From NCBI GenBank assembly GCA_947626095.1, contig CANQQV010000013.1, positions 1 through 41,846 on the forward strand: a stretch of DNA of 41,846 bases, read 5' to 3'. Both the position numbers and the translations under genes were made by a program. The stretch comes from an uncultured Bacilli bacterium. GTDB lineage: Bacteria; Bacillota_I; Bacilli_A; RF39; UBA660. Of this stretch, positions 5,148-24,519 are shown piece after piece (within the stretch, counting starts at the first letter, position 1; each line of letters starts with the position of its first letter). Below the pieces are notes generated by a model that saw nothing but the letters and a program-made list of their open reading frames with translations, was not told the DNA's origin and searched no databases.

Positions 5148-6153
5148 ACATTTTAGGTGCTGATGAATCTGGAATTGGTTCTTTTACAATTTCCATCATT
5201 ATACCTCTTTTTTCATTATCTATTACATATTTAGCAAATTCTTTTTTATTACCATTATTATCCATTAAAGACAAGAAAGTACTTATATCAATTTCGTCAA
5301 TGTAAAATCTTTGACGAGCAAGAGAAATACTTTCACTCATATTGGGATATATTACATAGTGACCTTCAGTTGCTTTGCCACTTATAACGACTTCTTTATC
5401 CGGATTTTCTTTATAAGCTAATAAATCAACACAGTAAATATAGTCTAAACAATATAAGAAAAAAGCAAAATCATATTGTAACTTATATTTTTCTTTTGCA
5501 AGATTATATTTGGCTTCTAGGTCTTTTAAGCCTTCATTATTTTTATACATATAATTAATTTTAACAAAGTAATCTTTAGAAACACCTAATAGAATAGCTA
5601 ATTTAGTTAGTTCACAGTCGTACATTTCATAATTATGTAAGTTTGAAATAACTGTACCACCTTTTAACATACGAAGATTTTCTGAAGGTATTTCTCGTTC
5701 AGGGAAAGTTATATTATGAATTTTAGAATAAATTTTTTCAGCAATATATTGAGTTTGAGCTTCCATAATTAAACGACCTATATCGTAACTTTGATTTATA
5801 CCTACTTCGTCATTTAAAGGATTAGTTTGAACTGCATGATGAAGTTCATGATAAATAGTTATTTCTCTTAATGGTTCTCCTAAATTATCTCTAATATAAA
5901 TTGTTTTAGTTTCGGGATCACAATAACCTTTAGCATCTAATCCGTTTTCTTTGGCTACTCGATGATTTTCATCATAAAATTCAATTTTATTAGCATAAGT
6001 TAAGGCATTTTCAATCAATTCTTCTAAACTAACACTGTCAGGAATTAAATCTTCTTCTAAAACAACACAGAAATAATTTAAATAATAATTTAAAGTTAAG
6101 CTATCAACTTCGGGATTCTTTTGTAAAATAATTTCTTTAATTTTTTCACGCAT
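5146..6153 (-). CDS. Putative zinc metallopeptidase (HExxH; ImmA/IrrE-like or gluzincin)
   Basis: KGYCD..KTIYI, then IYHELHHAVQ and a downstream E in IMEAQTQY. No signal peptide. Confidence 0.6.
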   Translation of the reverse strand: MREKIKEIILQKNPEVDSLTLNYYLNYFCVVLEEDLIPDSVSLEELIENALTYANKIEFYDENHRVAKENGLDAKGYCDPETKTIYIRDNLGEPLREITIYHELHHAVQTNPLNDEVGINQSYDIGRLIMEAQTQYIAEKIYSKIHNITFPEREIPSENLRMLKGGTVISNLHNYEMYDCELTKLAILLGVSKDYFVKINYMYKNNEGLKDLEAKYNLAKEKYKLQYDFAFFLYCLDYIYCVDLLAYKENPDKEVVISGKATEGHYVIYPNMSESISLARQRFYIDEIDISTFLSLMDNNGNKKEFAKYVIDNEKRGIMMEIVKEPIPDSSAPKM

Positions 6154-6181: not shown

Positions 6182-6850
6182 TTACCAATATTTTCCATGA
6201 TAATATGTATTATTTTCTAATTCATTATAATAGTCGATGTCTTCTTGACGACTTTGATGATTTTGTCTTTGCTGCTCTTTTAATTGTTCTTCAATATTTT
6301 TATTTTCGTCAGGATTATCGTTATCATCATCATTATCATCATCTTTACCATCATCACTATCATCATCTTTACCTGATTCTATTTGCTCTTCTAACTTTTT
6401 AATTTCTTCTTCTAACTCTTCAGCTTTACTACTCTTTCCATTATCATCGTCTTCGGATGCACAATTATCTTCATATAAAATATTTTTAGCTTTTTTTAAA
6501 ATACTTAAAGCTTCTTCAGGCTTGGTTTCATTAATTGTTTTAATATAAGATAAAGATAAATTAATTCTGATATCACAGACACGATCTTCTTTGGGATGTT
6601 TAGTTAAAGAAGTTTCATATTTAGTAATAGCTTCATCATATCTTTCTAAACGATATAATAAATTACCATGATTATAATAAACGATATATGGTTCATTAAT
6701 ATTTAAAAAATATAAAGTATTAATTAAGTTATTGTCATATTTATTATTTTCATAATCTTTAATAATTATTTCATTAAAGAAATATGTAGAACCTAGTTTA
6801 AGGAGAATTAAAGATAAAAAGATAATAATAATTAGTATAATCTTTTTCAT
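6182..6850 (-). CDS. TPR protein with acidic linker (BatC-like)
   Basis: N-terminal TM; YYNHGNLLYRLERYDEAITKY TPR; Asp-rich tract; last gene of the MoxR/VWA operon. Confidence 0.75.
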   Translation of the reverse strand: MKKIILIIIIFLSLILLKLGSTYFFNEIIIKDYENNKYDNNLINTLYFLNINEPYIVYYNHGNLLYRLERYDEAITKYETSLTKHPKEDRVCDIRINLSLSYIKTINETKPEEALSILKKAKNILYEDNCASEDDDNGKSSKAEELEEEIKKLEEQIESGKDDDSDDGKDDDNDDDNDNPDENKNIEEQLKEQQRQNHQSRQEDIDYYNELENNTYYHGKYW

Positions 6851-7794
6851 AAGCTCCTCCTTTTATATTCATTATATAGTAAGAATAGTAAGATTAATAA
6901 AGGAATAGTAAAGATATAGTATATATCTGTATATGATGAGATATCTGATTCTGTTCCAGTTGTATTTATTGATTTTTTGACTTTTTTTAAGGTTTTATCT
7001 ATATTACTTTGTTTGTTCATGTAAACATAATCAACACCTAGATCTTTAGCAATATCTTCTAAGTTATCTTCATCTAATTTAGAGATGGCTTTTTTATATG
7101 GCCAAGTTGAAGTATCTTCAACATATTTTATTTCATTACTATAACCATCATTTTGTTTCATATATCCACCATCTGTAGTTCCATAGCCTAGAACAGCTCC
7201 ATCATCAATGTATTCTTTTAAATCACTAAAGGATTTTAAACGTGAATCATCAGTTATTTCGCCATCACTAATAAAGAAGACTATTTTCTTACGTTTATTA
7301 TCTTGGTTATTTTTTAAGATACTTTCCATATCGTTATGAGGCGTATTAAGTGATGAACCTTTAGCATAGTAACTAACCATTGGCTGTAAAATATCAATTG
7401 ACTCATTGACAATATTATTATCAAAAGTAAATGGTATATCTATTTTAGAGGAATTATTAAAAGTGATTAAAGCAAAACGAGCTCCAGATAATTCTCTAAT
7501 AATATAAGAGCAATCCTCTTTAACGGCGTTTATTCTTTCTGAATTATTTGAACTGTAATCTTCAGCATACATACTTATTGTATTATCAACAACAAATAAG
7601 ACATCTAAGTCATTAACAATGATATTAGAATTGCCAGAAGAAAACATTGGACGAAGATTGATTATAAATAATAAAATAATAATAAAAATCTCATAAATAG
7701 TTACTCTACTCTTTTTCGTAATAAGAACAATGATAATTAAAAAGATGGAAATAGGCAACATAAGCCAGATAGGAATTATAGGGAATAATCTCAT
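6847..7794 (-). CDS. VWA-domain membrane protein (BatB-like)
   Basis: MIDAS motif DNTISM, FFISDGE, GYGTTDGG; N- and C-terminal TMs. Confidence 0.85.
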   Translation of the reverse strand: MRLFPIIPIWLMLPISIFLIIIVLITKKSRVTIYEIFIIILLFIINLRPMFSSGNSNIIVNDLDVLFVVDNTISMYAEDYSSNNSERINAVKEDCSYIIRELSGARFALITFNNSSKIDIPFTFDNNIVNESIDILQPMVSYYAKGSSLNTPHNDMESILKNNQDNKRKKIVFFISDGEITDDSRLKSFSDLKEYIDDGAVLGYGTTDGGYMKQNDGYSNEIKYVEDTSTWPYKKAISKLDEDNLEDIAKDLGVDYVYMNKQSNIDKTLKKVKKSINTTGTESDISSYTDIYYIFTIPLLILLFLLYNEYKRRSL

Positions 7795-8795
7795 GATATC
7801 ACCTTCTTACTTAATAGAATTAAAGTAAAGATGGAAACTAATAAAATAACAAAAGGAATAGTTGGCGTATCAACTTCTTTACGTTGAGATTCTTTTTTGA
7901 TCAATGATTTACTAGTTTTTTCAATATCATTAACTATATTTTTAACTGAGGATGTTGTGGCATCATAATACTTACCATTAGTTGTGGCAACAGCTTTTTG
8001 ATAGTTTTCTTTTTCTTTGACAAATTCTGGACCTAAACCATAAACTATAACTTTTTCCTTTTTACTTATAGTAGCAGCTTCATCTAAAGTTAATAATGGA
8101 GTACCAGCTAGAGCATTATCAGTAGTAAAGATAATAATTCTAGTACGATCTTCCTCTAAATTAGAAAAACTATAAACACATGATGCTAGGCCATCACCAA
8201 TTAATGAAGAACCTTTCTTATCATTACCCTCTAAAGTACCACTATTAATATAATTAACGGTAGTTAAATAATCATCTTTTTCAAAGATATTCATATTACG
8301 ATCATTACTATATTCAATGGCTTTTTTTATCTTTTTTAATGAATCAGTTACATAGTTATAATCATCAGTTAACGGAACTAATAAAACAGATGAAGTATTA
8401 AAGATGGAAATACCGAATCTTTCCCCTTTTAGTGATGATACTGTTTCAATTAAATTATCAACTAATTCATAGTTTAATTCATCTACTGAAGCTGAGACAT
8501 CCATACATAAAAAGATATCACGATTATATTCTTCATCCGTGGTTATTTCAACATTATATGGTCTAGCAAGTAAAAGGCAGGAAATAAGCATAGCTATAAG
8601 GCAAAATATTTTAGATGATAATAAAATAACTTTATAAAGTTTCACTCTTTTTTTAAAGTATGGTAACTCTTTGACAAATGAAGTATTAGCAACTTTAGTT
8701 CCATCTTTATAAGAGGTTTTTCTCGTTTTTAAAATGATGGCAATAACAATAATAATTAGACCAATTATTAGGATATATGGGTATCTCATTTCCAT
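7791..8795 (-). CDS. VWA-domain membrane protein (BatA-like)
   Basis: LLARP, MIDAS motif DVSAS, PLTDDY, IGDGL, FTTDN. Confidence 0.85.
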   Translation of the reverse strand: MEMRYPYILIIGLIIIVIAIILKTRKTSYKDGTKVANTSFVKELPYFKKRVKLYKVILLSSKIFCLIAMLISCLLLARPYNVEITTDEEYNRDIFLCMDVSASVDELNYELVDNLIETVSSLKGERFGISIFNTSSVLLVPLTDDYNYVTDSLKKIKKAIEYSNDRNMNIFEKDDYLTTVNYINSGTLEGNDKKGSSLIGDGLASCVYSFSNLEEDRTRIIIFTTDNALAGTPLLTLDEAATISKKEKVIVYGLGPEFVKEKENYQKAVATTNGKYYDATTSSVKNIVNDIEKTSKSLIKKESQRKEVDTPTIPFVILLVSIFTLILLSKKVIS

Positions 8796-9247
8796 CTGGC
8801 AACTACCTCTCTTGTCTTGGTTATAGAAGAGATAATATCTCCTTTAGAATCTTTAGCAAATTCAGGATGGTAATATTCTTCAACTAAAGTTGATAATATA
8901 GGAAGGTTAAGAGTTTTAATATCACTTAAAGTGCAGTTTTGAACTTTAATACCAGTTACTTCATAAACAAAGTTTCTAATTAACTTACTCAATTTTTGAT
9001 AAGCCAAGCGAAGACTTATTTTATTTTCATTAACAGCTATTAAAAGATTATTTATCTCTTGTAAATATTTATTTTTTATATCATTAATATTTGGTGGTCT
9101 TACAATAGTAATTTGTTGGACTGGTTTAGGTTTACGATTTAGAATGATAAGAACAATTGATAAAATAACAATAAGAATGATTATAAAAATAATTAATGGT
9201 AAAAAAGAATAAGAAAACATATCTTGTAAATCAAGAGAAGTTGGCAT
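8786..9247 (-). CDS. Single-TM protein of the MoxR/VWA operon
   Basis: TM plus helical domain, overlapping both neighbours; usual position between DUF58 and VWA genes. Confidence 0.65.
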   Translation of the reverse strand: MPTSLDLQDMFSYSFLPLIIFIIILIVILSIVLIILNRKPKPVQQITIVRPPNINDIKNKYLQEINNLLIAVNENKISLRLAYQKLSKLIRNFVYEVTGIKVQNCTLSDIKTLNLPILSTLVEEYYHPEFAKDSKGDIISSITKTREVVARWK

Positions 9248-10106
9248 ACTTGTGACTTTCTAATAATTCAATTATTTTAGGGTTTATTTCTTGTAAACTA
9301 GAAATAGTTACTAAACATATTTTATTTTTTCTTAATCTTTCTTTATTATATTTATAGATTTGTTCTTTTGTTTCTTTTTCCATTTTATTCAACTTCTTAT
9401 CTTTTAAAAGCATTGTAGGAATATATTCACTACTATCTAAATCAAAAATATTTTCACCAAACATATAAGCATCATTAATATTAATAAATAAAACATCATT
9501 TTGCATACTTAATTCTTTAAGTGTTTTATCTGTTATAGAGTTCATACCTTTTAAATCCGTAATAACAAAAATAATCATTTTCTTTTTGATATTACGCGTT
9601 ATAAAATGAAGAGTTTTTTCTAAACCTTCGTTATTAACTATAAGAGCATTTTTATCATATTCAGTTAGATATTCTTCTAGATTATATAAGTTATATTTAA
9701 ATTTTTTAAATATAATATTATCGTTTTGTTTATAGAGCATACCTATATAGTCATTGTTTTTTATAGCTAAATAACCTAATGTTCCAGCAGCGTATAAAGC
9801 AATATCTTTTTTTAAATCTTGATGATCTGTTTGACCATTCATTTTAATTCCGGTATCCATAACAAATAAGATATTATGTTTCTTTTCGGCAATGTACTGT
9901 TTAACTAATAATGTATTATTACGCGTTGATGATTTCCAATCGATATCTTTAATATCATCATTAATAACGTATTCTCTTAAGTTTTCAAAGTTCATACTTT
10001 TACCACGATAGACAGATTTGTAAGTTCCATCTAGAATGTTATAAGTTTTACGATTAGAAAAGATTGAAATATTAGCTCTTATCTTATTTATATATTTTAA
10101 GTTCAT
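9231..10106 (-). CDS. DUF58 domain protein
   Basis: GKSMNFENLREYVINDDIKDIDWKSSTR is the DUF58 signature. Confidence 0.9.
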   Translation of the reverse strand: MNLKYINKIRANISIFSNRKTYNILDGTYKSVYRGKSMNFENLREYVINDDIKDIDWKSSTRNNTLLVKQYIAEKKHNILFVMDTGIKMNGQTDHQDLKKDIALYAAGTLGYLAIKNNDYIGMLYKQNDNIIFKKFKYNLYNLEEYLTEYDKNALIVNNEGLEKTLHFITRNIKKKMIIFVITDLKGMNSITDKTLKELSMQNDVLFININDAYMFGENIFDLDSSEYIPTMLLKDKKLNKMEKETKEQIYKYNKERLRKNKICLVTISSLQEINPKIIELLESHKYANFS

Positions 10107-11128
10107 GGTGTTGCAATAGCTCCTATGATTGTATCTATTACTTGTTCAACACTAACATTATCAGCAATAGCTGAGAAATTTAAAGATATACGATGTCTTA
10201 AAACACTATATCTTAGAGCTTTAACATCATCTGGAGTTACATAGGTACGACCACACATTAAAGCTAAAGCTTTGGAACATTCCATAAAAGCAATGGTACC
10301 ACGGGGACTTGAACCTAAATTAATATACTCAGCTATTTTAGGATTGATATATTTACTTGGATTTCTAGTTACTTCAATTATTTGAGCGATATATCTTTTG
10401 ATTGAATCATCTATATAGACTTTCTTAGTTATATCTTGAAGATATGATAAATCATCTAAGGTAAGAATAGCATTGCCTTCAGTAAAAATATTTTTTTCAA
10501 TACGATTTAAAACTTCAATTTCTTCATCCATAGTTGGATAAGTTATCTTTTCTTTAATTAAGAAACGATCTAATTGGGCTTCAGCTAAAGTATAAGTACC
10601 TTCTTGTTCAATAGGGTTTTGGGTAGCAATAACAATAAATATTTCGGGCAATTTATATCTTTTGTTATCAATAGTTATTTGTCTTTCTTGCATGGCTTCT
10701 AAAGTTGCACTTTGCGTTTTAGCACTTGATCTATTTATTTCGTCTAATAAAACAAAGTTGGCATAGATAGGACCAATTTTAGTTTCAAAACTATTATTAG
10801 CATAATTAAAGATTTGCGTACCAATAATATCACTTGGTAATAAGTCTGGTGTACATTGAATACGAGAGAATTTACCATTAACAGCTTCAGTTATAACTTT
10901 AGCAGCAGTTGTTTTGGCAAGACCTGGTACTGACTCTAATAAGATATGACCATTAGCCATTAAAGATATTAATAAAGAACGTTGTAAATTAGTTTGACCG
11001 ACAATACGCTCTTTATAATAATTAAAGATTTGATTAATTATGTTTTGGGCTTTAGTTAACTCTTCTTGAGTGATATTACTACTTTGCACCATTGTATTTT
11101 GATTATTTATTTGATTATTATTATTCAT
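10103..11128 (-). CDS. moxR: MoxR-family AAA+ ATPase
   Basis: HILLESVPGLAKT, RIQCTPDLLPSD, LLDEINR, ATQNPIEQEGTY, AQLDRF, LGSSPRG, VLRHRI. Confidence 0.95.
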   Translation of the reverse strand: MNNNNQINNQNTMVQSSNITQEELTKAQNIINQIFNYYKERIVGQTNLQRSLLISLMANGHILLESVPGLAKTTAAKVITEAVNGKFSRIQCTPDLLPSDIIGTQIFNYANNSFETKIGPIYANFVLLDEINRSSAKTQSATLEAMQERQITIDNKRYKLPEIFIVIATQNPIEQEGTYTLAEAQLDRFLIKEKITYPTMDEEIEVLNRIEKNIFTEGNAILTLDDLSYLQDITKKVYIDDSIKRYIAQIIEVTRNPSKYINPKIAEYINLGSSPRGTIAFMECSKALALMCGRTYVTPDDVKALRYSVLRHRISLNFSAIADNVSVEQVIDTIIGAIATP

Positions 11129-13860: not shown

Positions 13861-15021
13861 GAATGCTTTGCTTGGAGTTCTTTTTTCAAAGTACTGCATT
13901 GGTAATTCTAATGAATGATTTTTACAATAATTAAATAGCCATTGAGAACATTGTTGATGATGATTTAAATATGTAGCTTCTTCAGTAAATAAGTATGAAC
14001 GACTAAAGATACATCTTAGAGCTTGACTAATTGAATTTCTTTGTCTTACATATTCTCTAAAGCTTATTAAATCACTACCACGATAGTATATAGCACTATC
14101 TCTTTCGATAAGTTTAAGGGCTTTTTTATTGTGGATATAACGTGGTAAATTATGGAAAAATCTTACCATATTATGTGCTGGTTTTTGCTCTTCATAGTCA
14201 TAAGTAGGAACAATTTGATATTGACGAGAGAATGTGGCAGCGCTTTGGGTAAATTTTTCATCGACATCCGCAAAATCAATTTCAGAAATAGTTTGCATAG
14301 AAGTATAAACTGATGGTCTAGAAAAAATAGATGGTAGCGGTATCAAGCCAATGCTTTCATTAGATTTATCTTCTGGTGGAAGAATTTCAATATCAGGAAA
14401 TACAACTTCACCTAATAATTCTTCATTGATTGTTTCAATCGGTGTTATTACTTCTTCTTTAGGAGTGACAGTTGGTTTTTTTATTGTACGCTTTTTAGGT
14501 TGTGGATTTAGATTACGAGTGTTATAACTTATTTCACGCCTTATTGATTTCTTTAACTCTTTTAATTCTTCAGCTGACAAATTAGCTAAATTATTATATG
14601 ATTCATTAATAGCATTGATATTGCTTTCTCTTTTTAAGACTCTTAAATATCGAGCTATATCTTTTCTAAAAGTAGTAGTTTTTTCTAAGTAAGTATCAAT
14701 TACAGATTCTTCAACATTACGATTTTTTAAGATATTTTTAATTTTATTAATATAATAATTTAATTTCTTACGGAGATTGATAATGTCCTCTGAAGATGTA
14801 GCATTTACTATTTCTTGCGTTAAATCTGTAATTAACTCTTGAGCTTCAATTACTGCTTTATATTGTTTGGCATCAAGTTCAGAAGCATTAAGAATTTGAA
14901 CAACATCTACTACACTTTCATTAAAATTATTTCTATTACTAGATAAGCTTTCTTTTACCATTTTTAGTAAAGCAAGATGAGCTTGATTCATTTTATCAAT
15001 ACGTTTATTAATTTTCTTCAT
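13858..15021 (-). CDS. Hypothetical protein (helical N-terminus, K/P/E-rich linker, C-terminal domain)
   Basis: Long ORF; ATG 15021 follows AGGTGA; no recognised motif. Confidence 0.7.
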   Translation of the reverse strand: MKKINKRIDKMNQAHLALLKMVKESLSSNRNNFNESVVDVVQILNASELDAKQYKAVIEAQELITDLTQEIVNATSSEDIINLRKKLNYYINKIKNILKNRNVEESVIDTYLEKTTTFRKDIARYLRVLKRESNINAINESYNNLANLSAEELKELKKSIRREISYNTRNLNPQPKKRTIKKPTVTPKEEVITPIETINEELLGEVVFPDIEILPPEDKSNESIGLIPLPSIFSRPSVYTSMQTISEIDFADVDEKFTQSAATFSRQYQIVPTYDYEEQKPAHNMVRFFHNLPRYIHNKKALKLIERDSAIYYRGSDLISFREYVRQRNSISQALRCIFSRSYLFTEEATYLNHHQQCSQWLFNYCKNHSLELPMQYFEKRTPSKAF

Positions 15022-15130
15022 TTGTTTCACCTTTTTCTTTAGTTTTTAATTCATCATCCATTCCTTGTAAAATGGATAATAATTCAAGTAAAGAGCCATT
15101 ATCTAAATCTTCTAAATTAATAGTATCCAT
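15008..15130 (-). CDS. Unannotated 40-aa acidic protein MDTINLEDLDNGSLLELLSILQGMDDELKTKEKGETNEEN
   Basis: Manual translation; AAAGGGGAG RBS; TATAAT near 15157-15162; its stop overlaps the start region of the next gene. Confidence 0.65.
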   Translation of the reverse strand: MDTINLEDLDNGSLLELLSILQGMDDELKTKEKGETNEEN

Positions 15131-15230
15131 ACTTTTCTCCCCTTTTGTGCTTTGTATTATACAAATAAAATTAAAAATAGACAAATTTAGCTTAATTTTT
15201 CACTAAAAAAAGGTTATTTTTATAACCTTT

Positions 15231-16214
15231 TTAGAAGTGTCTTGATGCTCCGCCACCTCCAGATGAGCCACCGCCACCGGAAAAACCACCTCCGGAAAAA
15301 CCGCCGCTTGAGTAACCACCACTTGAGTAACCACCATAGTCTCCGCCTCTATCGTAGTAACCGCCACCAAAGCCACCTTTTTTACCATTATGACGAGGAT
15401 TGATAATAAAGGCTGACAAAAGTGCTCCAACAATTGCAAGAATAATTTCCGCAATAAGAGATTCGGTTATTTCAGAATTTAGATCATAAACAATCGATAA
15501 ATGTGATAAAGCATTAATAAGATATATATTGGATAATATAGCAAAAATGCATAGAATGACAAAAACTAAACGAACAGTTGCGTTATCTTTTTTGATAAAG
15601 AAGCCAAAGATTAAACCAGAAATCAAGCCAACTGCATATAACATCATTTTTAATGATTCGCGTTTTTTTATTTCAGTCATATTTTGAGCAGCTATGTTTT
15701 CGATTTTTATATTAGATGTATCAATTTCATAGTAATCACAGATTTTTTTATAAAGAGCTGAATAACCGTTTTTTATTCCTTCATCCCAATTGTCTTCTTG
15801 AAAGTAAGGAACAAAGTAATTATCTAAATAACGACCAGCTAAACCATCAGTAATAATTCCTTCTAAGCCATAACCAACTTCAATTCTTACATCTCGTTCA
15901 TGAGGGGCAAGTAGAATTAATAAACCATTATTTTCGTTTTCTCCACCAATACCAAATTTACGAAATAAAGCAGTAGCATATTTTTCGATGTCTTGGCCTT
16001 CTAAACTTTTTACAGTTACAACAACAATTTGAGCGTTAGTAGCACTGGCTAGTTTAACTGAATTACTCATTATATAATTTTCCGTTTCTTCTGATAAAAC
16101 ATTAGCATAATCATTAACGTAAAATTCTGATGTTGGTTCAACTAATGCCATTACTTTAGTAGTTATACAAAATATTAAAGTAAGAAAGAATAAGATTGGT
16201 AATAATTTTTTCAT
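15231..16214 (-). CDS. TPM-domain membrane protein with Gly-rich tail (YgcG-like)
   Basis: YVNDYANVLS, QIVVVTVKSL, NNGLLILLA, RIEVGYGLEG, and a GGFSGGGGSSGGGGASRHF end. Confidence 0.9.
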   Translation of the reverse strand: MKKLLPILFFLTLIFCITTKVMALVEPTSEFYVNDYANVLSEETENYIMSNSVKLASATNAQIVVVTVKSLEGQDIEKYATALFRKFGIGGENENNGLLILLAPHERDVRIEVGYGLEGIITDGLAGRYLDNYFVPYFQEDNWDEGIKNGYSALYKKICDYYEIDTSNIKIENIAAQNMTEIKKRESLKMMLYAVGLISGLIFGFFIKKDNATVRLVFVILCIFAILSNIYLINALSHLSIVYDLNSEITESLIAEIILAIVGALLSAFIINPRHNGKKGGFGGGYYDRGGDYGGYSSGGYSSGGFSGGGFSGGGGSSGGGGASRHF

Positions 16215-16227
16215 AAATACTTTTCCT

Positions 16228-16327
16228 TTCTATCTTTATAATTTAATTATATAAAAATCTAATTGGTTTTAAAATTAATTTCTAATTATTTGACATAAAA
16301 AATATGCTTATGGTAAGCATATTAATT
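16228..16327. repeat. Direct repeat copy 1 (terminator + promoter intergenic unit)
   Basis: Hand alignment to 18815-18917 gives 14 mismatches and one 3-nt gap over ~100 bp. Confidence 0.85.
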
Positions 16328-16546
16328 ATTGTTAAGTTCCTTATGAAAACTTTCCATAACTTGAAGAGCTATATCCATATCTAATTCTTCAATTAATGTT
16401 CCATTATCTTCCTTAACGATTAACCAATCATTACTATTATTAAAATCCATTATTAAGTAATAATATTGATTGTCATAAAATGTTTTATTAGTAACAACGA
16501 ATTTTTGATTATTTTTAATTATTAAAATATCTTTTAAATTATACAT
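16322..16546 (-). CDS. 74-aa hypothetical protein, cassette partner
   Basis: GAGGGCG RBS; 20 bp downstream of the 748-aa gene; its stop lies in the repeat's terminator. Confidence 0.7.
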   Translation of the reverse strand: MYNLKDILIIKNNQKFVVTNKTFYDNQYYYLIMDFNNSNDWLIVKEDNGTLIEELDMDIALQVMESFHKELNNN

Positions 16547-16566
16547 ATTATCGCCCTCATTCCCAT

Positions 16567-18813
16567 TTAATGCGATATTCCTAATATTTCATCTTCAAAG
16601 TTTTTTGGCTTGATAATTTCAATTTGTTTTTTTCCTTCTAAGACATTACGTAATCGATCTAGTATTGCATTAACTATATGGCAACCATAATGATTGGAAA
16701 GTAGAGGTGAATAACTATCACTTGAGTTAGAATTATTAACTGTTTGCCCAACAATTTTTTGGCCTTTATCTACTAATTTATCTATATATACACTTAGTTT
16801 GTCTTTTGGTTTAGATGAGAAACCATTATAAAATCTATTTTCACTATTATTATCAATAACATTCATCACATTAAGAACACGAGGATTATCCTGTTGAATC
16901 GTATCTTTTAAATGATCTTCTTGAATGGTTGTTATAATATTAAACAACATATCTACTTTATTATCATTACGATACAAAGCAGTCATGGCTTGCATCACCA
17001 TCATTGAATTAGTTAAATTATGTTTATAAATATTTTTATCCTTACCAAATAATTCAAACAATTCCTTAGCCATAATACTAACTCTATACTTAGTACTAAA
17101 TTCTTCTTCAAACGTAACGTTTGTTGGATTATTATTGGTTCCTAATAAATAATCAGGAACAAATGAATTCTTATCACGGTTTCTGTTATATATATAATAA
17201 AAGTAGGCAATCCAAAATTTTAAATTAGTACCTTTAGACTCATATGCTTTTTTATATAAAGTCAAAGTTGCTAGATATTTTTGCTTCCATTCTATTCTTT
17301 TTGGGGAATAGTTATGATAATGATTTAAATTTAAGTTATATTTTCTTTCTAAATAATTTCTAACAGTTTCGTTGTTTTCTAACTGATAATTTAAAACATC
17401 GTCAATTTTGTCTGGATATTCTAAAATATAAGATGATAAGGTATCTGATTCAAGCATATAAGAAATAGCACTTTCCTTTGTTGGTAACGAATACCTATAT
17501 TGATAAATCTGAACTAAATTACTAAAATTATTTCCTGCATAGGCTCTTTCAAATAAATATAGTTGACCTTTTCTTTGTTCAAAGTTTGGCGTTTTAGTAT
17601 AAAGACTTTCATTGAAAATATCATTATTTAAAAATTCTTTTAAATCTTCCAGTTTAATAGAAATGTTTATATATTTCTCATCATCGTCATCTAATTGATC
17701 CCAAAATTCGATTGTATCACCATTAATATTTAAACGCCCATGAGAAACAGAATTCCTTAAGTGAGTTATTAAGACCGGAGTTGGATAATAAAGATTATTA
17801 TCCGTCTTAGCCATTTTATTTGATATACAAAAAAATGATTCGCTAGAGTTTTGATTACCATTAGATAGTTGACTGTCATTAACTAATCTTGAAAAACTAC
17901 TGCTTAAGGTTTGAGCTTCTTGATTATTTAAATATAAAAAATAATGTTTGTTGAAAAATTTATCTTTTAATATTTCTTCTTCAGTAACTTGATTAGTAAT
18001 TTTAACCTGAAATTTGGAGCAATCAAAAAAGCATTGTTGTTTTTCTAAATATTTATCTAATACACTTTCTTTATTATAACTTAGCATTAAAGATAAGCTA
18101 ATAAGGACTTTAAGATTGGCAAAATCTTGACTTAAAGATAATAAGTTTTTAAATTCTATTTTTTCAACAGCTTTTGATGGTGTTGCAGCTTTATTTGGAG
18201 ATTCTTGAGCTTTTTTGAATTGGGTTACATCATCTTTTATGGCTTTATATGCAGCGAATAACATATGTACTAGTTGATTTGAAGAATTTTCGTGATTAGC
18301 TAAACTTTTTTCTAAAATGGAGATTAAACGATCTTTAGAAGCAACAATTGTTAGGTCTGGTTCTGATGTTGGACGATGTTTACTTATTAGAGTTAATAAA
18401 CCTCCATCTTCGTCGTAGTTTATCGAACCAGAGCCATGAGCAAATATATTTCTCATATGAGTAAAAATTTTTTTGTTATGATCACCCTCATTTGTGTTGG
18501 GGTGATCATCAGTTTGCATATTAAAACCTCTTGGATTATCTCTTAAAACAAAATAATCAACTACTTTTTTATCATCATCCATTGTAGCTGTTTTCCTTTT
18601 ATTATTTTTGTTAGTATCTTTATACTCAGGAATATTGTTTATGTTTGAAACGGTTTCTTTATCAGCAATGATAGCAATTGTAAATAATATAAATAATTTG
18701 ATATCTTCAAGTTCAGAGGGAGTTATACTTGAAAAATCTTTTATATTAAGACAGTTACAAAACTTTTTTATAATAGGATTTATATAATCTTTATAATTTT
18801 TCATTATTATCAT
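16567..18813 (-). CDS. 748-aa protein with two HEPN-like RxxxxH motifs (putative RNase/defence effector)
   Basis: IFTHMRNIFAHG (R121-H126) and LITHLRNSVSHG (R353-H358); the second is followed by GDTIEFWD. The start may be ATG 18804. Confidence 0.6.
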   Translation of the reverse strand: MIIMKNYKDYINPIIKKFCNCLNIKDFSSITPSELEDIKLFILFTIAIIADKETVSNINNIPEYKDTNKNNKRKTATMDDDKKVVDYFVLRDNPRGFNMQTDDHPNTNEGDHNKKIFTHMRNIFAHGSGSINYDEDGGLLTLISKHRPTSEPDLTIVASKDRLISILEKSLANHENSSNQLVHMLFAAYKAIKDDVTQFKKAQESPNKAATPSKAVEKIEFKNLLSLSQDFANLKVLISLSLMLSYNKESVLDKYLEKQQCFFDCSKFQVKITNQVTEEEILKDKFFNKHYFLYLNNQEAQTLSSSFSRLVNDSQLSNGNQNSSESFFCISNKMAKTDNNLYYPTPVLITHLRNSVSHGRLNINGDTIEFWDQLDDDDEKYINISIKLEDLKEFLNNDIFNESLYTKTPNFEQRKGQLYLFERAYAGNNFSNLVQIYQYRYSLPTKESAISYMLESDTLSSYILEYPDKIDDVLNYQLENNETVRNYLERKYNLNLNHYHNYSPKRIEWKQKYLATLTLYKKAYESKGTNLKFWIAYFYYIYNRNRDKNSFVPDYLLGTNNNPTNVTFEEEFSTKYRVSIMAKELFELFGKDKNIYKHNLTNSMMVMQAMTALYRNDNKVDMLFNIITTIQEDHLKDTIQQDNPRVLNVMNVIDNNSENRFYNGFSSKPKDKLSVYIDKLVDKGQKIVGQTVNNSNSSDSYSPLLSNHYGCHIVNAILDRLRNVLEGKKQIEIIKPKNFEDEILGISH

Positions 18814-18814
18814 C

Positions 18815-18917
18815 TTCTATCTTTATATTTTAATTATATAAAAAATTGGGTTATTTTGAAATTAATTTCAATTTAATTGACATAATAAAAAATATGCTTT
18901 TAGTAAGCATATTAATT
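18815..18917. repeat. Direct repeat copy 2 (dapA terminator + promoter)
   Basis: Shares TTCTATCTTTATA, TTTAATTATATAAAAA, AAATTAATTTC, TGACATA and AAAAATATGCTTnnnGTAAGCATATTAATT with copy 1. Confidence 0.85.
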
Positions 18918-19799
18918 TTGAGAATCAAATTCAGTCATTTTATTTTTTAAAACTAATCTATTTGGTTCAGTTATTTTAACTAATGGTAATCTTGGTGAAC
19001 CAAAGTTAAAGCCTTTCATATTTAATGCCTCTTTAACTGGTATAGGATTTACTTCACTGAATAAGGCTTCAATTAATGGTAAAGCGGTTAATTGCATATC
19101 TAGTGATTTAGTTACATCACCATTTAAATAGTTAGCGACAATATCATGAGTATACTTAGGATAAATATTAGATAAAACAGAGATTACTCCTTTACCACCT
19201 AATGATAAAATTGGTACTATTTGATCATCGTTACCGGAATAGATAGTTAAATTATCACCACATAAATGAGCTATTTTAGCTACTTGAGAAATATTACCAC
19301 TAGCTTCTTTAATAGCAACAATATTATCTATCTTAGATAGTTCATAAGCTGTTTCGGGATTAATATTTAAACCTGTACGACTAGGAACATTATATAAAAT
19401 AATAGGAATATTAACTGATTTAGCAATAGCTTTGTAATGTTCAATTAAACCACCTTGGGTTGTTTTATTATAATAAGGTGTTACAACTAAAATACCATCA
19501 GCCCCAACACTTTCAGCATACTTTGACATACTGATAGCTGAAGCTGTGTTATTGCCACCAGTACCAGCAATGACAGGTATTCTTTTATTAACTGTATCAA
19601 CAGCAAATTTAATACATTCTTTCTTTTCTTCTAAACTCATTGTAGCTGATTCACCTGTAGTACCACAAACGATGATAGCATCAGCTTGACCTTCTATTTG
19701 ATATTCAATTATTTTTTTAAATTCATCATAATTTATACCATCTTCGGTAAATGGTGTGGCGATAGCTGTACCACAACCAGTAAATAAAACTTTTTTCAT
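18912..19799 (-). CDS. dapA: 4-hydroxy-tetrahydrodipicolinate synthase
   Basis: GTTGES, AGTGGN, VTPYYNK, LYNVPSRTG, IKEASG, SGNDD, NPIPVK. Confidence 0.95.
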   Translation of the reverse strand: MKKVLFTGCGTAIATPFTEDGINYDEFKKIIEYQIEGQADAIIVCGTTGESATMSLEEKKECIKFAVDTVNKRIPVIAGTGGNNTASAISMSKYAESVGADGILVVTPYYNKTTQGGLIEHYKAIAKSVNIPIILYNVPSRTGLNINPETAYELSKIDNIVAIKEASGNISQVAKIAHLCGDNLTIYSGNDDQIVPILSLGGKGVISVLSNIYPKYTHDIVANYLNGDVTKSLDMQLTALPLIEALFSEVNPIPVKEALNMKGFNFGSPRLPLVKITEPNRLVLKNKMTEFDSQN

Positions 19800-19955
19800 T
19801 ATTTAACCTCCCTATTAAATTTATTCACTTAAAAGCGAAAAATTTAATTATACTCTAATAATATACAAAGACAAGGTTAAAATTGAGTAATGAAAATCCA
19901 CACTATTATTTTTCTTTCCACATTTTTTAGTAATAAAAAAGAAGATTAAATCTTC

Positions 19956-20522
19956 TTAACTAAAATCAACAGTTGGATTTTCTTTTTTACTTTCTTCAAC
20001 TTCAAAGTAAGTTGCTTTTTCGAAATGGAATATTCCAGCAACTATATTACTAGGAAATTTTTGAGTTTTAGTATTATATGCTTTAACAGCTTCATTATAA
20101 TCATGACGCGAAGTTGAAATTCTGTTTTCCGTACCAGCCAATTCATCTTGAAGATTAATAAAATTCTCATTAGCTTTTAAATCGGGATAGTTTTCAACAA
20201 TAACCATTAAAGCATTAATAGCATTGGTTAATTCTTCATTAGCTTCTGATTTTTCATCAACAGTATTAGCTTTAAGTAAGTTTTCACGAGCTGATGTAAC
20301 TTTTTCAATAGTTTCTTCTTCGTGTTTTACATAACCTTTAACGGTATTAACTAAGTTAGGAATTAAATCTGCTCTTCTTTCTAGTTGAACATCAACGTTA
20401 GAATATTGAGTATCAACGTCTTCTTTTAAAGTAACTAATTCATTATATGATGAACCAATTGCCATACCAATAAATGCTAATAAAGCAACTATTACTATAA
20501 CTACAATTAAGCTTTTTTTCAT
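19956..20522 (-). CDS. lemA: LemA family protein
   Basis: QLERRADLIPNLVNTVKGY, ENYPDLKANENF, ELAGTENRI, FPSNIVA. Confidence 0.95.
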   Translation of the reverse strand: MKKSLIVVIVIVALLAFIGMAIGSSYNELVTLKEDVDTQYSNVDVQLERRADLIPNLVNTVKGYVKHEEETIEKVTSARENLLKANTVDEKSEANEELTNAINALMVIVENYPDLKANENFINLQDELAGTENRISTSRHDYNEAVKAYNTKTQKFPSNIVAGIFHFEKATYFEVEESKKENPTVDFS

Positions 20523-20628
20523 AGTAGTCCTCCTTATATTTACATTGTATCATATTAATTTTTTTTTAATACTTTTTATAATGGGCTTTGACAAATTATT
20601 TGTAAAAATAAAAAGAGCTATAAGCTCT

Positions 20629-21393
20629 TTACTTTAAATTATCATTAATATAATGTAATAGTTCTTCTTGTTCAATATTATAACCAGTAATATTATATGA
20701 AACATTTTCATAATTAAATGATATGTCAATTACTAAATCTTCATTTGGATCATTATTTGGATAAGAACTAATTATAATAACTGGGGTTTTTATATTAGCT
20801 ATTTCTTGTAAAACAGTTGTTTTGCCATAATTATGAACATCAGTATCGCTTAAATCACTTTCATAATTTTTAGTATATATAACAGCATTGCCATAAATAA
20901 CTTTATCATGACGTCCTTGCATAACTTTACACTCTTCTTGGCAATCAATTGGTATTTCAAAGTTAATATACATTGCTCCTACTTTTGATTCACTATTTAG
21001 GTTTCCATAACTATATGAATAACGCCCTTTAGAAAAACCTAAGACATTTACTTTAGATATATTTCTTACATCTTCGATTGTTACATTATTAACATGTTTA
21101 TGAATATCCTTTGAGTCGATAACGAGATCATCTATAGCAGTATTAGTAATTTTAATGTCACTAAGAGTAACTTCTTGACCATTGCTTTCAATTGTCTTAC
21201 TACCTAAATTTTTAATAAAGTCTTTGATAGTGTCAGCATTAACAATGGTTGTGGTAATAGTAATAAACATTAAAATTAATAAGAAAGCATTTTTTAACTT
21301 AGAATTATTCTTTTTTCTTTGGATAGTATTAAGAATTTCATCATCAATATTTTTATCTACATTATATTTACTAATTTGATTTTTATAATTCAT
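20629..21393 (-). CDS. Putative anti-sigma factor (single TM, extracellular domain)
   Basis: 1 bp downstream of the ECF sigma gene; short cytoplasmic N-terminus followed by a TM. Confidence 0.65.
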   Translation of the reverse strand: MNYKNQISKYNVDKNIDDEILNTIQRKKNNSKLKNAFLLILMFITITTTIVNADTIKDFIKNLGSKTIESNGQEVTLSDIKITNTAIDDLVIDSKDIHKHVNNVTIEDVRNISKVNVLGFSKGRYSYSYGNLNSESKVGAMYINFEIPIDCQEECKVMQGRHDKVIYGNAVIYTKNYESDLSDTDVHNYGKTTVLQEIANIKTPVIIISSYPNNDPNEDLVIDISFNYENVSYNITGYNIEQEELLHYINDNLK

Positions 21394-23413: not shown

Positions 23414-23782
23414 TTAATCATCTTCATAATAGTAATCATCTTCTTCGAGTTCTTCTTCATCAAAGTTATATGATGAATATTTACCTTCTCTTACTAAATC
23501 TTTTTGCCAATCTTCAAGATTTTGCGAATTCATTTTGCTTTCTAGTTCTTCATCTTCTAGTTCATCATCATTAAGTAAAGTAGCTAAAGCAAGGCCAGTA
23601 GCAAGTTTTTTATTATCTTTTTTATCTTTTTTATTTTCTTCCTGTTTATTAGTAACTATTTTAAAAATAAAAGATATTAAGTTAATTAAAGCTTTAATTA
23701 TAAAGAAAATAGCAACAAAAATTACGGTTATTATTGTTGCTAAAGATTTGGTATCATCATTCTTTTTCGCCATATTACTCAT
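23414..23782 (-). CDS. Small membrane protein with very acidic C-terminus
   Basis: TM, Lys-rich patch, ends EEELEEDDYYYEDD. Confidence 0.6.
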   Translation of the reverse strand: MSNMAKKNDDTKSLATIITVIFVAIFFIIKALINLISFIFKIVTNKQEENKKDKKDNKKLATGLALATLLNDDELEDEELESKMNSQNLEDWQKDLVREGKYSSYNFDEEELEEDDYYYEDD

Positions 23783-23856
23783 CTCACTAATATTATATTA
23801 TTAAATAAATGGTTAAGCAATTTTTAAATAAAAAAATAAACAAACATTAAGTTTGT

Positions 23857-24519
23857 TTATTCAGGATTACCCAATTTTATATCTTTATCTTTTTCTTTAA
23901 CAACTAAAATGCGATCAAATAAAACCATTAAATCACTATAATCAAGCAAGGCATCAGCTTTAACAACAGCATTAATAAATTCATTTTTATTTTCGATTAA
24001 GGAATAATCTAAGTTATATTCTTCTAAACCATTAGTTTTACAGATATAATCAAGTAGTTGTCTTACAAATTCTCTTTCTGTACGACCATTACCTTCTCTA
24101 AAAGGATGAATAATATCTAAGTTAGCATAGAATTCTGTAATAAATTTTAGTAAGTCTTCACGATTATGAATATTAGGTATAGTATATTTTAGACTAGCAA
24201 ATAGTTTGTTTAGTTCAGTAGTTATATATTGCGGCAAACAAAAAGGAATTCGTTTAGAAATGACTTCTGTTCTGATCTCTCCAGCAAATGGATAGATATC
24301 TTCAAATAAAAATTTATGAATAGATTTATAGTGTTCAATATCAAATGTTTGATGACCAGGATCTAAATATAATTTAGCTAGTTTATAGCTAGTAACCATT
24401 CTTTCAGCTTTATTTAGTAATTCTTCATCATCGAGATTAAGTTTATTTTGTAAAACACCACCAGCTCTAGTATATGGTGATTGATAATTTAATATTTCAT
24501 CGATTCTTCCCATAACCAA
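23857..24519 (-). CDS. fic: Fic-domain toxin (AMPylase)
   Basis: IHKFLFEDIYPFAGEIR and the canonical HPFREGNGRTER motif. Confidence 0.92.
   Translation of the reverse strand: MVMGRIDEILNYQSPYTRAGGVLQNKLNLDDEELLNKAERMVTSYKLAKLYLDPGHQTFDIEHYKSIHKFLFEDIYPFAGEIRTEVISKRIPFCLPQYITTELNKLFASLKYTIPNIHNREDLLKFITEFYANLDIIHPFREGNGRTEREFVRQLLDYICKTNGLEEYNLDYSLIENKNEFINAVVKADALLDYSDLMVLFDRILVVKEKDKDIKLGNPE

Follow-up and report, generated by a model that had tools for sequence, protein, structure and literature searches.

Insertion with long target duplication was reportedly described for restriction-modification gene units by Nobusato et al. in 2000. A comparable footprint is found in an uncultured Bacilli bacterium (RF39; UBA660) on contig CANQQV010000013.1 of assembly GCA_947626095.1, analysed here as one stretch of 41,846 nucleotides (the window). 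A large and a small gene stand there between dapA, of the dihydrodipicolinate synthase family, and a gene coding a TPM-domain protein, and this two-gene insert is bracketed by direct repeats of about 100 nucleotides (nt). In the relevant part of PMC2853133 (Furuta et al. 2010), restriction-modification units are described as inserted with direct repeats of host sequence of 46–423 bp; such units are without mobility genes and the mechanism of their insertion is unknown. Substitution of alleles at one locus is mentioned there too, as is a cycle, put forward as a hypothesis, in which units are amplified and released. The best reading of the present locus is an old insertion of this known but unexplained kind, which is now a fixed slot and not an active excising cassette. 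The first-pass annotation of the window, which had described a plug-in HEPN cassette gained or exchanged by recombination at an intergenic module, is partly supported.

The repeats are located at 16228..16327 (copy A, 100 nt) and 18815..18917 (copy B, 103 nt), with a start-to-start distance of 2587. Their global pairwise alignment has 86 matches, 14 mismatches and one 3-nt gap, which reproduces exactly the initial description. The pair is the top direct-repeat family within the window, and in a search of the genome's own assembly (1.6 Mb, 34 contigs, 28% G+C) the second copy scores E 2.9e-25 and 109 bits. A search for further copies had been advised; the next-best match in this genome is a 53-nt partial one of 48 bits. 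Chance similarity of the two copies is ruled out by the genome search and by an all-against-all blastn of 655 crudely defined intergenic regions of the same genome (regions 150 nt or less from contig ends were dropped). The pair ranks 13th among the 360 intergenic pairs with E<=1e-3, above the random AT-rich intergenic background, and eight of the 12 pairs ranked higher belong to one multi-copy repeat family. Both junctions of the cassette lie within contigs of public sequencing runs (two studies), which excludes an assembly artefact as the source of the layout.

Two other intergenic sequences were noted in these searches. The segment C12:19094-19148 (53 nt) is 82% identical to the promoter part of the repeated unit around the -35 region and sits in a long intergenic region with no open reading frame (ORF) of at least 80 aa downstream. 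The multi-copy family is found at C2:3991-4273, C6:36342-36718, C8:36489-36644, C21:4199-4396 and C19:3228-3467, 5452-5718 and 6901-7016; its members reach at most 90% identity over 168 nt and hold no tRNA according to ARAGORN.

Genes in this part of the window are all on the minus strand and are read in the order LemA, dapA (18912..19799), a 748-aa ORF (16567..18813), a 74-aa ORF (16322..16546) and TPM (15231..16214). By sequence comparison, the repeated unit is a predicted dapA intrinsic terminator joined to a predicted TPM promoter. On this strand both copies begin at the stop codon of the upstream gene (AAT TAA). In copy B, the dapA stop codon and terminator are joined to a TPM promoter copy, which now stands before the large gene; in copy A, the small-gene stop codon is combined with a dapA terminator copy and with the TPM promoter. 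The terminator hairpin of copy A (16297..16323) has a 10-bp stem (-11.4 kcal/mol, z -4.9) and that of copy B (18887..18913) a 9-bp stem (-8.3 kcal/mol, z -3.1), each followed by U6. The stem of both copies also follows the dapA stop codon in three relatives of the same genus, G005, G008 and G010. What comes after the T-run of the hairpin differs: the promoter of p287 in G008, that of p371 in G010, and the promoter part of the unit in G005 and in the genome carrying the window (G000). This promoter part is ~72 nt long, ends at the ribosome-binding site and aligns with the spacers before TPM2 and TPM3 of G010, a genome that codes three tandem TPM paralogs (L022:1542-4733; mutually 47–53% identical). 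Identity to these spacers is 76–83% for copy A and both G005 copies, and 70–75% for copy B. In G010 the ~72-nt module precedes the last two paralogs and its two copies are 93% identical. The halves of the unit thus each occur singly elsewhere, the dapA terminator in G008 and G010 and the TPM promoter in G010.

Promoter-like hexamers matching the consensus are present in both copies, TTTAAA-16-TATAAT at 16246..16273 (copy A) and TTCAAA-16-TATAAT at 18833..18860 (copy B), within the regions homologous to the spacers upstream of TPM in G010. Note that a scan for such hexamers gives 44 sites versus 39 +/- 7 in shuffles, i.e. no excess in this AT-rich DNA, so that the promoter call rests on comparative evidence and not on the consensus. 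With these predicted signals, the duplicated unit would supply a promoter and a terminator to the insert while dapA keeps its terminator and TPM its promoter. The proposals that the copies duplicate a whole terminator-plus-promoter unit, and that this unit serves the insert, agree with the comparison.

The same layout is present in G005, a sister species of the same genus, where LemA, dapA, the unit, a 743-aa homolog, a 73-aa homolog, the unit and TPM are found on one 9.6-kb contig with a unit spacing of 2600. Insertion and duplication would therefore predate the split of G000 and G005, and the earlier view that the event is not recent holds. Copies A and B are 84% identical in G000 and 92% in G005; between species, identity is 90% for the A units and 79% for the B units. 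The divergence between copies does not date the event, because the A units are 90% identical while the adjoining proteins are only ~70% identical. The longest run of identity between the two copies is 16 nt in G000, and 28 nt (then 24 nt) in G005. Since identical runs in G000 are at most 16 nt, its copies are a poor substrate for present-day recombination.

The second line of evidence is the mosaic divergence between G000 and G005. The comparison genes p466, p151 and p254, which lie far upstream, code for proteins 98%, 98% and 93% identical, with synonymous divergence (dS) of 0.14, 0.15 and 0.18, respectively. LemA (89% protein identity, dS 0.47) and dapA (96%, dS 0.45) are followed by the large gene, with 37% identity and a saturated dS of 1.21, the small gene, with 71% and 0.34, and TPM, with 70% and 1.0. 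The dapA protein is also 89–90% identical to its counterparts in G010 and G008. DNA identity in 100-nt windows is 95% at the end of dapA, drops to 79% in unit B and to 49–70% (~60%) over the length of the large gene, and returns to 89% within the small gene. Selection on a protein cannot raise synonymous divergence several-fold, and the simplest reading of these values points to replacement of the large gene, in one lineage, by a deeply diverged allele through homologous recombination. The mosaic dS (0.14–0.47 in the flanks, 1.2 in the large gene) and the sharp breaks of identity fit recombination, if indirectly. The left crossover would lie near the terminator-promoter joint of unit B and the right one close to where the small gene begins. 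What was exchanged would thus span from the promoter part of unit B to the small-gene start; this piece differs from the repeat-bracketed unit, against the former idea that the bracketed cassette itself was exchanged.

In run X6, contigs are ~87–88% identical to the window at both ends of the cassette and dapA contigs 87–91%; they point to a third lineage that has a G000-type allele diverged only about as much as its neighbour. A protein 79% identical to the large protein is known (P0003). The TPM protein is deeply diverged too, the N-terminal 200 residues of those of G000, G005 and of G010-TPM2 being equidistant at 73–75%. The proposal of a variable slot stands as far as the large gene is concerned, with an allele of 37% identity inside flanks of 89–98% protein identity; it does not extend to an empty allele or to other cargo, as no empty site was found in the genomes compared and no other gene family between the two units in the two genomes carrying the site. 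An allele so diverged within near-identical flanks marks a slot where a conflict-type gene would be exchanged. A second variable islet with a toxin-like gene was noted at 23414-24519, formed by a 122-aa ORF (23414-23782) and a Fic/DOC-family ORF (23857-24519), where identity to G005 drops from >90% to ~55%.

An old insertion with long target duplication, now a fixed slot with allele replacement, is on balance the probable full explanation. The identity of the unit, the shared layout and the mosaic divergence are observed, whereas the duplication route, the recombination route and all of the biochemistry are inferred. Before the split of G000 and G005, a two-gene module coding the 748-aa and 74-aa proteins would have inserted into the ~100-nt spacer between dapA and TPM, and the insertion would have duplicated this entire spacer with its dapA terminator and TPM promoter. 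Transcription of dapA would still end at its own hairpin, the insert would be read from the copy of the TPM promoter down to the copy of the dapA hairpin, and TPM would keep its promoter. Both copies would be working signals and would have been kept for that reason. The module would now be a fixed chromosomal slot and not an active element. Later, in one lineage, the large gene and the promoter part of copy B would have given way to a very divergent allele through homologous recombination, the conserved flanks involved being dapA and its terminator on one side and the small gene and copy A on the other. The large protein would most likely be a HEPN-type RNase, with both motifs contributing to a single active site, and would act in phage defence or as a toxin. 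Duplication of a whole spacer would explain both how the insertion was harmless to its neighbours and why the two copies persist.

Compared with the insertions as characterised in that part of PMC2853133, direct repeats longer than 30 bp are found here (100 and 103 nt, spacing 2587), and the insert, shorter than 20 kb (2.5 kb), carries no mobility gene. As in the restriction-modification insertions, the final bases of the upstream gene fall within the repeat and the cargo is a conflict-type gene pair. The cargo here is, however, not a restriction and a modification gene, the target is a complete terminator-plus-promoter spacer and the event predates a species split. The locus thus adds an example with non-restriction-modification cargo to this footprint and does not overturn current views. 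A literature search on duplicated intergenic promoter/terminator direct repeats at insertions gave no relevant report among the papers listed.

Several observations weigh against this account. The insertions delineated in PMC2853133 have a single-copy target in an insert-less relative. Here no empty site with a single unit was found: the terminator-promoter junction is present in two of 27 genomes of the genus (G000 and G005, twice each) and in none of 400 other genomes sampled from the family. Many of the compared genomes are incomplete and an empty allele may exist unseen among them. The advised comparison of the dapA–TPM interval in relatives thus returned neither an empty site nor other cargo, and the junction solely in G000 and G005. 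Copy B of G000 is an outlier to all other copies (69–84%), an ambiguous sign that relaxed constraint would also explain. The adjacency of dapA and TPM appears, from gene order, to be itself derived, and the units could be leftovers of earlier tandem duplications. The large gene has a poor Shine-Dalgarno sequence, and the small ORF of G005 has no in-frame ATG, GTG or TTG start after the preceding stops. With regard to the predicted activity, none of 16 members of the large-protein family matches HEPN Pfam models at E<=0.1, and neither a solved HEPN structure nor Cas13 is among the fold-search matches. A metagenome scan with the junction pattern gave 12 loci, none of which encodes any of 10 neighbourhood proteins; they were rejected as chance matches limited to the pattern itself.

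Leftovers of tandem duplication are the alternative that survives best, though an unlikely one. A segment from the TPM promoter to the dapA terminator would have been amplified, and the two-gene module would later have replaced the content between two junctions, a history that corresponds to 'chance insertion between repeated sequences', the third class in the scheme given in PMC2853133. The locus does amplify in G010, whose gene order is LemA, three tandem TPM genes, dapA and p371, with the promoter module in the TPM spacers and dapA directly downstream. Tandem duplication of promoter, TPM, dapA and terminator would create the exact joint seen, and two contig joints in run X5 fit a G010-like order in a further relative. 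LemA directly adjoins TPM in G010, G014, G001 and G023, i.e. they are usual neighbours in relatives of the genus; in G008, p287 comes 52 nt after dapA. Inside the cassette, however, no TPM or dapA remnant is detected, the best blastn match there being an AT-rich one of 35.6 bits and tblastx giving nothing below E 0.004. The replacement would also have had to stop exactly at the start and stop codons, and the series of events needs more steps than a single insertion.

A further possibility, rather improbable as a substitute for insertion, is that the repeats are a shared regulatory module and not an insertion scar. The promoter would be a portable control element that co-switches the large gene and TPM, its similarity being kept by selection or gene conversion, an explanation that says little on how the genes arrived. 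It is consistent with the presence of the same promoter module before TPM2 and TPM3 in G010, with one further occurrence in the genome of a 53-nt piece of the promoter region, and with two features of the copies: the orthologous A units are 90% identical between proteins of ~70% identity on either side, and the two copies within G005 (92%) resemble each other more closely than the orthologous B units do (79%). A shared operator leaves unexplained that the duplication includes the dapA terminator with near-identical stem and flanks, and no regulator or operator is identified. Shared regulation is compatible with an old insertion and not opposed to it.

An active plug-in cassette, whose 2587-bp unit still excises as a circle or amplifies through its two copies, is very improbable: the ~100-nt direct repeats bracketing the unit, the identical runs of 28 and 24 nt shared by the G005 copies and the direct evidence of amplification of a restriction-modification unit by flanking repeats cited in the pertinent part of PMC2853133 speak for it, but the G000 copies share no identical run above 16 nt, two species keep the layout stably, the end points of the allele exchange are not the repeats, no recombinase family is found among the 45 window ORFs, and no 2587-bp skip or circle joint is found among the contig joints listed for four runs (contigs, from which rare forms are lost). 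The proposed excision or amplification thus finds no counterpart among these joints. Two odd joints were recorded at the locus: in run X1, position 16540 is linked back to 16261 through 20 other letters (depth 11.4), and in run X5, 18813 is linked back to 16517 through 7 letters (depth 2.9). Either diverged relatives or rearranged forms could account for them.

Other systems resemble parts of the locus. Minimal mobile elements are said to go back to Saunders & Snyder (2002) and Snyder et al. (2007). According to the definition given for Neisseria in PMC3082526 (section 6), such elements lack mobility genes, and homologous recombination in the flanks exchanges what lies between the conserved genes, as would be the case here. 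The elements so defined carry different whole-gene cassettes, whereas the present alleles belong to the same family, are 37% identical and are known from two genomes only; flanking direct repeats, present here, are not in that definition. The flanks of the exchanged piece are conserved, with 96% identity in dapA and 71–90% in the small gene and unit A. Integration by a Campbell-type single crossover (insertion-duplication) leaves direct copies of the homologous segment on either side of the insert. This route requires a circular donor already carrying the 100-nt unit, and nothing at this locus shows such a donor. As in integron cassettes, the gene module would be expressed from a promoter supplied by the site; unlike in integrons, no integrase is found among the 45 window ORFs, and the repeats are host intergenic DNA with terminator and promoter instead of attC sites, though no search aimed at attC structure was made.

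A tentative and more far-reaching idea, which we consider doubtful, is that the unit acts as a recombinase-free, transcriptionally insulated socket, a standard docking module common to a population of gut Bacilli, in which deeply diverged alleles of a single-chain, two-motif HEPN-like RNase from a rare family would be swapped by homologous recombination without disturbing the neighbours. The units and the conserved small gene may then serve as homology arms.

The most interesting loose end of the locus is the protein family of its cargo, which is very rare, uncharacterised and has two R-x4-H motifs in a single chain. Scans with Pfam, PADLOC and NCBIfam assign the large protein to no family, and P0001 has no HEPN family match at E<=10. 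A word search places the family in three clusters, and 17 representatives are found among 1.84 billion. The first motif, RNIFAH, is coded at 18436..18453 (residues 121–126) and the second, RNSVSH, at 17740..17757 (residues 353–358). Across 16 members, H126, R353, H358 and G359 do not vary; R121, part of the consensus, is conserved in <90% of them. The two motif regions align with each other (9 identities in 19 positions, E 6e-4), which suggests an internal duplication. With moderate confidence, these motifs assign the large protein to the HEPN-type RNases. Cas13 is a single-chain protein with two HEPN domains. The large protein likewise has two conserved R-N-x3-H motifs in one chain; it has the R-x4-6-H motif expected of HEPN proteins and lacks a match to a curated family model. 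No array-like repeats are present in the window, unlike for a Cas13-type effector with an adjacent CRISPR array.

Two leads, neither of which is a test, concern PF18736, the pEK499_p136 HEPN family: it is the precomputed label of two close homologs, P0003 and P0004, and its clusters are at the top of the Atlas feature search (0.83–0.86). In the part of PMC3710099 (Anantharaman et al. 2013) that deals with it, the pEK499_p136 family is linked to restriction-modification and Pgl neighbourhoods. The large gene shares rapid divergence, a small adjacent partner and a variable locus with the HEPN systems treated in that part. AlphaFold2 models the whole protein with pLDDT 73.8 and residues 216–420 with 78.6, and places beta strands after the motif helices. 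Foldseek with the models gives nothing at E<=0.001. The best VIA-align Z, 6.6, concerns the C-terminal helical hairpin only, that of the motif-2 domain being 3.5, and a sequence search of solved structures returns only a meaningless match of E 0.28. No relatives of the large protein are found in viral contigs, plasmids or phages. A search of genome contigs yields only that of G005 and one weak, partial match, and the class-level genome search finds a relative in none of the 398 other genomes scored. The HEPN and defence labels of the first-pass annotation are accordingly weak as labels: the former retains its two conserved RNxxxHG motifs, without agreement from Pfam, PADLOC or fold comparison, and the latter draws on the same two motifs only, with no PADLOC hit to the large protein.

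The ORF of the 74-aa protein begins 20 nt after the end of the large gene. Among 5.8 billion clusters the protein has a single further homolog, and its dN/dS is 0.44, estimated on few sites. It belongs to no Pfam or NCBIfam family at accepted thresholds, and its only PADLOC match is a weak one to PDC-M02A (E 0.0048). Its G005 counterpart (L021:7991-8212) begins with ATA at the position of the G000 ATG, and a GAGGTG ribosome-binding site is retained upstream of it. Prediction of a complex between the large and small proteins scores 0.15, below the mark of 0.32. The small protein is, with low confidence, a possible regulator.

The genes around the insert have clear assignments. LemA (19956..20522) matches PF04011 with E 1.1e-62, the conserved upstream gene dapA matches PF00701 with E 9.8e-94, and TPM, the downstream gene served by copy A, matches PF04536 with E 5e-41. 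The absence of an integrase or transposase nearby, recorded at first sight, is confirmed by the lack of any Pfam match to integrase, transposase or recombinase families among the 45 window ORFs. There is no Rfam family in 14800-20800 at E<=1 and no tRNA within the window. Base composition of the insert is unremarkable (26.4% G+C versus 27.3% for the window). A 15-nt tandem repeat (2.5 copies, 15299-15336) lies in the part of TPM coding the Gly/Ser-rich C-terminal tail, which is the part of the protein that differs most from G005. The region 6847-11128 codes an ordinary cluster of MoxR AAA ATPase, DUF58 and VWA-domain proteins. Elsewhere in the genome, at C3:22908-25069, an intergenic pair in direct orientation (78% identity over 147 nt) brackets response-regulator and histidine-kinase-like genes and may be another duplicated control region around an operon.

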